From the NCBI RefSeq assembly GCF_000027125.1, contig NC_017626.1: 64,000 nt of DNA; one strand, 5' to 3'. The translations under genes were made by a program, and so were the position numbers. Of this stretch, positions 7,931-10,884 are shown in pieces (position 1 is the first letter of the stretch; each line of letters opens with the position of its first letter). A model generated the notes under the pieces. That model did not search any database. It worked only from the letters and a program-made list of their open reading frames with translations, and was not told the DNA's origin. The DNA is from Escherichia coli 042. Its GTDB lineage: Bacteria; Pseudomonadota; Gammaproteobacteria; Enterobacterales; Enterobacteriaceae.

Positions 7931-9355
7931 ATGCAACATAAGTTACTGATTAACGGAGAACTGGTTAGCGGCGAAGGGGAGAAACAGCCTGTCTATAATC
8001 CGGCAACGGGGGAAGTTTTACTGGAGATTGCCGAGGCATCTGCAGAGCAGGTCGATGCCGCTGTTCGTGCAGCAGATGCAGCATTTGCCGAATGGGGGCA
8101 AACCACGCCGAAAGCGCGTGCGGAATGCCTGCTGAAACTGGCGGATGTAATCGAAGAAAATGGTCAAGTTTTTGCCGAACTGGAGTCCCGTAACTGTGGC
8201 AAACCGCTGCATAGTGCGTTCAATGATGAAATTCCGGCGATTGTCGATGTCTTTCGCTTTTTCGCCGGAGCAGCTCGCTGCCTGAATGGTCTGGCGGCAG
8301 GTGAATATCTTGAAGGTCATACTTCGATGATCCGTCGCGATCCGTTGGGGGTCGTGGCTTCGATCGCACCGTGGAATTATCCGCTGATGATGGCTGCGTG
8401 GAAACTGGCTCCGGCGCTGGCGGCAGGGAATTGCGTAGTGCTCAAACCATCAGAAATTACCCCGCTGACAGCGTTGAAGTTGGCAGAGCTGGCGAAAGAT
8501 ATCTTCCCAGCTGGCGTGATTAACGTGCTGTTTGGCAGAGGCAAAACGGTGGGCGATCCGCTGACCGGACATCCCAAAGTACGGATGGTGTCACTGACGG
8601 GCTCTATCGCCACTGGGGAACACATCATCAGCCATACCGCGCCGTCCATAAAGCTTACTCATATGGAACTTGGAGGCAAAGCGCCAGTGATAGTTTTTGA
8701 TGATGCGGATATTGAAGCGGTGGTCGAAGGTGTACGTACTTTTGGCTATTACAATGCCGGACAGGATTGTACTGCGGCTTGTCGGATCTACGCGCAAAAA
8801 GGTATTTACGATACGCTGGTGGAAAAACTCGGTGCTGCAGTGGCAACGTTAAAATCTGGTGCGCCGGATGACGAGTCTACGGAGCTTGGACCTTTAAGCT
8901 CACTGGCGCATCTCGATCGCGTCAGCAAAGCAGTAGAAGAGGCGAAAGCGACAGGGCACATCAAAGTGATCACTGGCGGTGAAAAGCGCAAGGGTAATGG
9001 CTATTACTATGCGCCGACGCTACTGGCTGGCGCATTACAGGACGATGCCATCGTGCAAAAAGAGGTATTTGGTCCGGTAGTGAGTGTTACGCTCTTTGAC
9101 AATGAAGAACAGGTGGTAAACTGGGCAAATGACAGCCAGTACGGACTTGCATCCTCGGTATGGACGAAAGATGTGGGCAGGGCGCATCGCGTCAGCGCAC
9201 GGCTACAATATGGTTGTACCTGGGTCAATACCCATTTCATGCTGGTAAGTGAAATGCCGCACGGTGGGCAGAAACTTTCTGGTTACGGCAAGGATATGTC
9301 ACTTTATGGGCTGGAGGATTACACCGTCGTCCGCCACGTCATGGTTAAACATTAA
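7931..9355 (+). CDS. patD: Gamma-aminobutyraldehyde dehydrogenase (aldehyde dehydrogenase family)
   Basis: 474 aa; ALDH family features (ELGGK, catalytic Cys region GQDCTAA). Confidence 0.9.
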
Positions 9356-9577
9356 GTTAAATGTTAGTGGCTGTTATAGGGCGGCCACTATCGTTTTAGG
9401 TTCTGAGTGTAATGGTGATTAAGTATCAGAATGATTACATTAATAACTAGCGGAAAAATTAGGCAGTTATTATGATCTAAATGTATGTTGGTGATTTTTC
9501 ATCCTGTCATAGTTGATTCGCATAAGGCTTTAGAGTATCGTTATTAACCTAATAATTTATAAGTAGAAGTATTAACA

Positions 9578-10387
9578 ATGAAAGTTCAATTGTATAAATT
9601 CACGGAAGATAAAAATAAAACCCTTACCTTCAGGTGGACGAAAAAACACTTTGAGTTTTGTATGGATAATAAAATCTTTTTAAATCATAAGGGGAAGAAG
9701 TCGTATAAAGAAAGAAATTTATTTCTTTTCTCAAAAGGTGACAAGATAACAATTGAAGATAATGTTATTGCTGAAGAATATTCAACAATGCCTGTAAAAA
9801 ATTTCTCCAGTGTCGGCGCTTTTTCATTCCCGACCTGTCATTTTACAGGGAATATACATATAGGTCGATTTTGTAGTATTGCATCAAATGTAAAAATAAT
9901 GGGTGGAAATCATCCTTTGAATCGTTTTACTACTCACATGATGACTTATAACGGTGAATTTGATAAGTTTGCTAAGAGTGAGTTTGAACGTAGCTGGACA
10001 TTGAAACCATTCATTACCAAACCTGAAAATCCGATTATAGGAAATGATGTCTGGATAGGAAATGATGTTGTACTGAAAGGTGGCATCGCAATAGGTGATG
10101 GTGCTGTTATTGCTGCCAATTCCGTTGTTACCAAAGATGTGCCCCCATATGCCATAGTTGCAGGAGTTCCTGCAAAAATAATCAGATTTAGATTTGATTC
10201 AAATGTTATTGATGAATTGTTGAGAATAAAGTGGTGGAATTATAATTACTCAGATCTTCCGGATAATAACAAATGTGATGATATAAATTATTTTGTTGAA
10301 GAGATGAATCGATTGATATCAAATGGAAATATTCAAGAGATGGACTATAAAAAATTCAATCTTTCTGAGATATTTAGAGACCTATAA
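9578..10387 (+). CDS. Hexapeptide-repeat (left-handed beta-helix) acetyltransferase, XAT-like (Vat/CatB-type)
   Basis: 269 aa; C-terminal IGNDVWIGNDVVL…IGDGAVIAANSVVTKDVPPYAIVAGVPAKIIRFRFD…LLRIKWWN resembles streptogramin/chloramphenicol acetyltransferases as recalled; AT-rich insert absent from the K-12 patD–yncL spacer as I recall it. Confidence 0.6.
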   Translation: MKVQLYKFTEDKNKTLTFRWTKKHFEFCMDNKIFLNHKGKKSYKERNLFLFSKGDKITIEDNVIAEEYSTMPVKNFSSVGAFSFPTCHFTGNIHIGRFCSIASNVKIMGGNHPLNRFTTHMMTYNGEFDKFAKSEFERSWTLKPFITKPENPIIGNDVWIGNDVVLKGGIAIGDGAVIAANSVVTKDVPPYAIVAGVPAKIIRFRFDSNVIDELLRIKWWNYNYSDLPDNNKCDDINYFVEEMNRLISNGNIQEMDYKKFNLSEIFRDL

Positions 10388-10788
10388 TTATCTGTTCTGC
10401 ATGATAAATGGGCAAGATAACCAGTTCGGGGTTTGCAATTTCAATGGGACAGCGTCATCAAGGAGGTTGCAATCATCCTGCCATGCATATACTTTACGCC
10501 ATCTTTTTATATTTACTTTATTCCCTGAAAGTATAAAGCATTTATAGACTCCCGCGCGTCTAAAGTATTGATGATAGAAAAATGTGAAAACAAGGTTCCC
10601 TTTGAATCAGTAAGCTGTCTGTATAGACGACAGGAGGGGGATGTTTTCTACTTATTTCAATGTAGATGTCAGGAAAAAGAAGTAAATATTAAGGATAATG
10701 TTGTAAACCTGGAGAGTATGAGATGATCTTGCGTACTGTCAGAGCACTGATTTCTCTGACAGTACGTGCTGCGTGCAAAATCACTACA

Positions 10789-10884
10789 TCAAATAAACCA
10801 GCCAAATCTCATAGAGATAAGAGTAAACAAACCAACAGCAGCAAAGACATTTATCAGTACTACAGTTCTACTGGAAACATTCAT
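10789..10884 (-). CDS. yncL: Small membrane protein YncL (31 aa)
   Basis: Manual translation MNVSSRTVVLINVFAAVGLFTLISMRFGWFI; the plus-strand track ORF 10723-10920 is antisense to it. Confidence 0.8.
   Translation of the reverse strand: MNVSSRTVVLINVFAAVGLFTLISMRFGWFI

Follow-up and report, generated by a model that had tools for sequence, protein, structure and literature searches.

VatD (1khr) and VatA (4hus) share the beta-helix of the xenobiotic acetyltransferase (XAT) class and a protruding loop that carries the catalytic His, and CatB/PaXAT (3eev, 6mfk, 1xat) have the same catalytic architecture. ApmA (7jm0), an aminocyclitol N-acetyltransferase of 274 amino acids (aa), has an additional region N-terminal to its XAT core (PMC7885111). 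NeuO of Escherichia coli K1 (3jqy) is a solitary, prophage-borne hexapeptide O-acetyltransferase that lies remote from the polysaccharide cluster it serves and uses the His/Trp catalysis described for acetyl-CoA-dependent beta-helix enzymes (PMC3046976). Orf11 (276 aa), whose gene ends the cst-neuBCA sialylation operon of Campylobacter jejuni, is given as the sialate 9-O-acetyltransferase of lipooligosaccharide (LOS) in the passages that cite Houliston 2006 (PMC8319020, PMC3513307, PMC2174954). Here, we compared with these systems a 269-aa hexapeptide acetyltransferase gene (WP_000867994.1) located between patD and yncL in E. coli 042 (contig NC_017626.1); the window, that is, the whole stretch of DNA analysed, comprises 64,000 nucleotides. 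The original prediction had described an AT-rich insertion with a Vat/CatB-like protein, either a resistance determinant or a sugar/lipopolysaccharide (LPS) acetyltransferase. With a probability of roughly 0.55, we consider that the AT-rich segment carries one functional gene for a carbohydrate O-acetyltransferase, which was acquired horizontally long ago and inherited together with its flanks, and that K-12 has lost it by deletion.

The gene is an already annotated but uncharacterised accessory gene. RefSeq names its product 'CatB-related O-acetyltransferase', and a literature search on the E. coli protein accessions returned no paper that mentions them. The protein matched Pfam PF00132 (Hexapep) with 48.2 bits, above the gathering cut-off of 27, and its AlphaFold2 model had a pLDDT (predicted local distance difference test) of 91.4. 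In the sequence search and the fold matches, the nearest solved structures were VatD, VatA, CatB, and ApmA, with similarity limited to residues ~60–230; identity to VatD and VatA was 30–34% over ~165 residues. His112 aligned with the catalytic His82 of VatD, and among 58 homologues Trp159, within the NDVWIG motif that is also conserved in the Vat proteins, was invariant and His112 nearly invariant. The beta-helix, the loop with the catalytic His, and the conserved Trp of the neighbouring subunit that characterise the XAT-like class are all present, while VatD Tyr37 fell opposite Thr70 in the HMMER alignment, which is uncertain at that place. No hydrophobic segment was found in the 269-aa protein, which is therefore predicted to be soluble.

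We conclude that the gene encodes a soluble XAT-type acetyltransferase with a left-handed beta-helix, which bears out the Vat/CatB-like family assignment made earlier; comparison with VatD likewise confirmed that the catalytic His is conserved. An N-terminal extension of ~70 residues, held to be atypical of Vat proteins, had also been proposed. An extension is indeed present, but it amounts to ~33 residues relative to VatD (residue 61 corresponds to VatD residue 28), and a C-terminal extension of ~22 residues had gone unmentioned. Judging from the family, the enzyme would be a cytoplasmic, probably trimeric, acetyl-CoA-dependent O-acetyltransferase in which His112, on the loop protruding from the beta-helix, would activate the acceptor hydroxyl, and Trp159 of the adjacent subunit would line the acetyl-CoA tunnel. 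The acceptor is most likely carbohydrate in nature (a sugar or a surface-glycan intermediate) rather than streptogramin A or chloramphenicol.

Full-length homologues were found in Citrobacter (77% identity), Cedecea (71%), Enterobacter sp. Ag1 (70%), Providencia (56%), Kluyvera (53%), and Rahnella (46%), all of them under one generic product name; the RefSeq protein cluster comprises 3,523 sequences. Similarity to the Campylobacter proteins ran through the C-terminal extension to the protein end, with 39% identity to C. jejuni P0127 over residues 66–269 (E = 6e-45, reaching the C-terminus) and 40% to C. lari P0108 over residues 41–267, while the first ~40–65 residues had no convincing alignment. 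Both Campylobacter genes are the final gene of an LOS sialylation operon. The C. jejuni locus reads cgtA, cst, neuB, neuC, neuA, and the acetyltransferase gene, followed by waaV and waaF, and by this gene order P0127 is the positional orthologue of orf11. Orf11 and the E. coli protein belong to the same length class, share a hexapeptide/XAT-like core, and are alike in being soluble acetyl-CoA enzymes. When the common core (residues 61–230) was compared using phmmer, the E. coli protein scored 134–158 bits to glycan-locus members and 99–104 bits to VatA/VatD. Full-length homology, including the C-terminal extension, thus brought it nearer to the Orf11 type than to Vat or CatB, a ranking by similarity and not by a rooted tree. 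These comparisons suggest a separate clade of proteins extended at both termini, of which Orf11 is the sole characterised member that we could identify.

The genomic contexts of the homologues were mutually unlike and most copies were solitary; only those of Campylobacter, Brochothrix, Enterococcus, and Providencia were linked to glycan genes. The Brochothrix copy overlaps a GtfA/GtfB glycoprotein-glycosylation operon at the operon's start, that of Enterococcus thailandicus is part of a teichoic-acid or polysaccharide locus, and that of Providencia is divergent to an enzyme of GT52, a family that includes sialyltransferases, in prophage cargo adjoining a tail-fibre gene. In a P2-like prophage of Kluyvera, the gene is located directly 3ʹ of those for the tail fibre and its assembly, a slot typical for lysogenic conversion. 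N-extended relatives occupied 13 loci among the matches listed, which were mostly generic XAT cores; these loci were heterogeneous, with both glycan and phosphonate (phn) contexts, and their neighbours included 3-deoxy-D-manno-octulosonic acid (Kdo) transferases, heptosyltransferases, a WaaP-type kinase, and sugar-nucleotide enzymes. Considering that clade members are encoded within operons for surface glycans or at lysogenic-conversion positions of prophages, and that Orf11 is one of them, the acceptor would most likely be a carbohydrate. NeuO offers a precedent for a lone gene that modifies a surface glycan. It differs from the patD–yncL protein in that it belongs to another subfamily, only the hexapeptide segment aligns (residues 149–204, E = 3e-10), and the phase-variable heptad repeat of NeuO is absent.

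The same protein could also be read as a cryptic enzyme for the O- or N-acetylation of xenobiotics or antibiotics, a chromosomally encoded 'proto-resistance' XAT which, like Vat, CatB, and ApmA, would inactivate a drug such as chloramphenicol or streptogramin A. VatD, VatA, CatB, and ApmA are its closest solved structures, the catalytic His is retained, a stand-alone detoxifying enzyme would be expected to have a solitary gene such as this one, and ApmA shows how an XAT can acquire a new class of drugs as its target through an N-terminal extension (PMC7885111). Against this, the scores reached only 15–42% of the cut-offs of the curated resistance families, being 125.5 bits for Vat (NF000311; cut-off 300), 105.7 bits for CatB (NF000490; cut-off 350), and 81 bits for ApmA (NF000084; cut-off 550). 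The E. coli protein is longer than the Vat and CatB proteins at both termini, and its N-terminus showed no relatedness to that of ApmA by sequence, profile, or fold, so that the homologous N-terminal domain expected of an ApmA protein is missing as well. The core comparison above already placed Vat and CatB further from the protein than the glycan-locus proteins. Moreover, those proteins, Orf11-type members of sialic-acid operons and members of teichoic-acid operons among them, give the identical sub-threshold profile of Vat, CatB, and TIGR03308 matches, which indicates that the Vat/CatB resemblance is a trait of the whole clade and by itself no pointer to drug modification.

The distribution of the gene pointed in the same direction. 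Unlike vat and catB genes, it has no plasmid or integron-cassette context, and among 72,556 plasmid records no Enterobacterales plasmid carried a close relative. The sole 100% match in the plasmid collection was PLSDB NZ_CP141089.1, a 4.9-Mb E. coli record with patD-region DNA that is evidently a mislabelled chromosome. Phage records contained only distant matches to the core and no close relative, and spread on plasmids or phages was rejected on these searches. E. coli is intrinsically insensitive to streptogramins, which makes selection for a Vat function there unlikely. Taken together, we regard a drug-modifying enzyme as unlikely. Of the two possibilities in the original prediction, the cut-offs, the similarity to the glycan clade, and the absence from plasmids favour the sugar acetyltransferase and give no support to the resistance determinant. 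It had also been stated there that the resistance idea would fall if the best homologues were polysaccharide O-acetyltransferases or if the catalytic His were absent; the homologues are in spirit of that kind, the catalytic His, however, is present.

Several observations weigh against a carbohydrate acceptor. The XAT class includes true antibiotic-modifying enzymes, among them ApmA, which is likewise extended at the N-terminus (PMC7885111). P0127 was equated with Orf11 by gene order and not by the published Orf11 sequence. Whereas orf11 ends a sialylation operon, the E. coli gene is solitary, and the patD–yncL locus lacks the linkage to sialic-acid or glycan genes seen around the Orf11 type; genes for sialic-acid synthesis or a sialyltransferase are absent from its surroundings. 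The homologues in Citrobacter, Cedecea/Enterobacter sp. Ag1, Rahnella, and the P0032 host are solitary too, and no glycosyltransferase or sugar-nucleotide gene was found near them or near the E. coli gene, so guilt by association comes only from relatives at 36–56% identity. Acceptor specificity can shift at such identities, and at the 39–40% that separates the E. coli protein from the Campylobacter proteins it is not assured. The strains bearing the segment span many O-serogroups, and thus no particular surface polymer is pointed to. Finally, the top NCBIfam match was the phosphonate-operon family TIGR03308 (131.6 bits), and PhnJ and other phosphonate-operon genes, including those for phosphonate-binding proteins, are neighbours of some of the N-extended relatives listed.

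The TIGR03308 match and the phosphonate-operon neighbours, together with the solitary position of the gene in E. coli, would suit an enzyme that acetylates a small metabolite, neither carbohydrate nor antibiotic, such as an aminophosphonate or a toxic analogue, in the manner of the TIGR03308 transferases of phosphonate operons. The score was nevertheless below the family cut-off of 201.65, there are no phn genes near the E. coli, Citrobacter, Cedecea, Rahnella, Providencia, or Kluyvera copies, and neither the score nor the linkage therefore places the protein in TIGR03308. As TIGR03308 was also the best match of the glycan-locus proteins, it does not discriminate between the two kinds of acceptor, and we consider this explanation quite improbable.

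Other features were observed around the homologues. In the prophage cargo of Providencia (8576–9893 in locus L010 and 8075–10392 in locus L011), the homologue and the GT52 gene lie beside strain-variable defence modules, namely DarT with a NADAR antitoxin (DarTG) in one strain, and a reverse transcriptase with an AAA_21 ATPase (retron-like or abortive-infection-like) adjoining an integrase in the other. In Cedecea (locus L007, 8300–9906), a chromosomal gene with a pore-forming colicin domain and a colicin immunity gene are located ~1.5 kb downstream of the homologue, and the same colicin context was found in Enterobacter sp. Ag1 (locus L029). The Campylobacter/Helicobacter members P0137, P0141, P0143, P0144, and P0151 are 373–420 aa long and have PF28160 as an additional domain according to precomputed annotation. 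An anti-phage defence protein was rejected for the patD–yncL gene, as PADLOC gave no match and PHROGs gave only families of unknown function. In E. coli ST131, a rearranged capsule locus (KL112) has a gene named 'CatB-related O-acetyltransferase' beside a second kpsS (bioRxiv 10.64898/2025.12.15.689991). This is a capsule-locus gene, and the paper was rejected as a record of the patD–yncL gene; should the KL112 gene fall into the clade of the latter, E. coli itself would provide a case of glycan linkage.

To describe the segment that carries the acetyltransferase gene, the window was aligned at base level with K-12 BW2952, in which patD runs straight into yncL and the segment is absent (Table 1). 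The GC content of 33.4% compares with 49% for the remainder of the window and forms a trough of 0.29–0.39 over ~9300–10800 between flanks that are both at ~0.52; beyond the segment and the short block next to it, the window and K-12 are ~100% identical. Low-GC extra DNA of ~1.3 kb without a K-12 counterpart had been predicted here at 9356–10720, which was essentially correct. Comparative genomics of the patD–yncL spacer, which had been suggested as a check, found the segment in 1148–1158 of 5426 complete E. coli genomes (~21%); the remaining ~79%, for example K-12, NU14, and O157:H7, are without it. In strain Ecol_316, which has an identical region, the RefSeq gene order is patD, the acetyltransferase gene, yncL, ortT, and ydcY.

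Table 1. Features of the patD–yncL segment in the window
Feature	Position	Strand	Basis
AT-rich variable segment, 1337 bp, 33.4% GC	9357..10693 (or to 10713)	.	K-12 BW2952 alignment
Imperfect 19-bp direct repeat, left junction copy, AAACATTAAGTTAAATGTT, spanning the patD stop codon	9347..9365	.	sequence; repeat finder I8/D2
Terminator-like hairpin, 11 pairs (9365-9390) plus T-run	9365..9400	+	terminator scan; kept in other alleles
Upstream region, putative promoter and 5ʹ untranslated region (5ʹUTR)	9497..9577	+	blastn conservation with the locus of the Citrobacter homologue; promoter scan
269-aa XAT-like hexapeptide O-acetyltransferase gene (WP_000867994.1)	9578..10387	+	open reading frame (ORF) list, RefSeq, Pfam/NCBIfam
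Non-coding tail, 306 bp	10388..10693	.	ORF list
Right junction copy of the 19-bp direct repeat, AAATATTAAGGATAATGTT	10684..10702	.	sequence; repeat finder
20-bp block with 7/20 mismatches between insert-bearing and insert-free haplotypes	10694..10713	.	alignment

The junctions of the segment are marked by the two copies of the direct repeat, which agree at 15 of 19 positions and contain an exact ATTAAG at both breakpoints; K-12 has a single hybrid copy. The identical junction was found in all three insert-free genomes checked (K-12, NU14, and O157:H7). The 20-bp block followed the presence or absence of the segment and not lineage, even across distant lineages, with one form common to K-12, NU14, and O157 and the other to the window, 2013C-4282, and cM2a. 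This difference may come from imprecise deletion or repair.

We then compared the synonymous divergence (dS) of the acetyltransferase ORF with that of the adjacent 3ʹ part of patD in the same strain pairs. The values were 0.087 and 0.117, respectively, for the window and 2012C-4227, 0.202 and 0.223 for the window and 2013C-4282, and 0.243 and 0.193 for 2012C-4227 and 2013C-4282. The dS of the ORF tracks that of patD, which indicates that the segment has been resident at patD–yncL since those lineages split. Furthermore, the flanks of the insert-free strains K-12, NU14, and O157:H7 nest inside the diversity of the insert-bearing flanks, with a difference of 7 per mille between K-12 and cM2a, while insert-bearing 2013C-4282 differs by 44–53 per mille from all others. 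The opposite direction, a single old insertion, is a less likely alternative. Since the gene has diverged together with patD and one junction is common to the insert-free strains, deletion in K-12 is favoured, and K-12 and most other strains most likely carry a deletion allele formed at the short direct repeat. The simplest reading would be that an AT-rich gene was acquired long ago and that one deletion allele then spread. The earlier wording of an 'insertion' is thus misleading, as this is an old presence/absence polymorphism that has co-diverged with the patD flank and whose K-12 state looks like a deletion. As to the source, the GC content of the ORF is 7–16 points below that of host DNA in GC-rich Enterobacterales and equals that of the host in Providencia, Campylobacter, Brochothrix, and Enterococcus, which is consistent with a gene from low-GC organisms.

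Changes within the locus were also observed in individual strains. In the E. coli genomes H32, H77, H78, and H88, an IS1 element lies within or beside the acetyltransferase gene, which is annotated as two pieces, and in strain cM2a (locus L017) IS1 stands in place of the middle of the segment (~9517–10492 in window equivalents) and the gene is gone. The IS1 disruptions and the cM2a deletion fit recurrent loss. In the insert-bearing strain 2012C-4227 (locus L016, 2309–2483), the orphan toxin gene ortT, located just past yncL, is annotated as frameshifted.

Such disruption or deletion in several strains, together with the AT-rich, foreign-looking composition, the loss of the segment from ~79% of genomes, and a promoter scan that revealed no strong promoter, could suggest a decaying remnant of an old acquired island, with an ORF intact by chance, no current function, and possibly silencing. 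The coding sequence does not behave in this way. Three divergent alleles with a full-length ORF exist in E. coli, namely that of the window, one at ~95.4% (955 genomes), and one at ~93%. The ratio of nonsynonymous to synonymous divergence (dN/dS) among them was 0.07–0.09 at dS values of 0.09–0.24, and it was 0.08 between the E. coli gene and the Citrobacter homologue. These ratios indicate that the gene is under purifying selection and is not a remnant; the catalytic residues are intact and the RefSeq cluster is large. A functionless relic is thus hardly credible. We conclude that this is a functional accessory gene, which is presumably expressed.

The remainder of the segment contained few other features. 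The terminator-like hairpin lies 10 nt past the patD stop codon, within the left end of the segment, and is the probable terminator of patD in insert-bearing strains, while patD of K-12 presumably depends on a bidirectional hairpin shared with yncL (~10734–10766 in window equivalents). Upstream of the ORF, the blastn alignment with the Citrobacter locus (L003–L006) begins 88 bp before the start, ~80 bp being conserved, and this region is presumed to hold the promoter and 5ʹUTR of the acetyltransferase gene. It contains a weak sigma-70-like match, TTTAGA-16-AATAAT, at 9529–9556, and the promoter scan yielded no more sites than shuffled sequence. In the tail past the ORF, blastn detected no homology to the Citrobacter or Cedecea loci. 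The non-coding tail diverged by 4–7% between alleles, which looks neutral, and no gene, RNA family, or terminator was recognised in it with the ORF list, Rfam, and the terminator scan. A small RNA or riboswitch in the segment was rejected, as Rfam gave no match at E ≤ 1, and so was a mobile element (insertion sequence, transposon, or integron cassette), as the 1337 bp contained no transposase, integrase, insertion sequence ends, or attC. The inverted repeats reported by the repeat finder were weak and at chance level only.

If the acceptor is a carbohydrate, a more specific role can be proposed, which we hold only tentatively and rate as rather unlikely: a domesticated enzyme of the lysogenic-conversion type, present in about one-fifth of strains, may O-acetylate a conserved glycan of the cell surface or else a nonulosonic acid, sialic or other, obtained by scavenging, with the polymorphism kept by balancing selection. 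Candidate glycans would be the LPS core, enterobacterial common antigen, and colanic acid. Were this true, phage receptors or immune recognition would be altered, and balancing selection on this surface phenotype would underlie the old polymorphism and its single deletion junction shared across phylogroups.

Vat/CatB-like hexapeptide proteins tempt annotation pipelines and readers into latent-resistance labels. The patD–yncL gene, otherwise an ordinary accessory gene, is common in E. coli and more probably encodes a carbohydrate O-acetyltransferase than a latent resistance enzyme, and in resistome surveys it would be a likely false positive. For the family, these results tie a large, generically named clade of 'CatB-related O-acetyltransferases' to one characterised member, Orf11 of Campylobacter.

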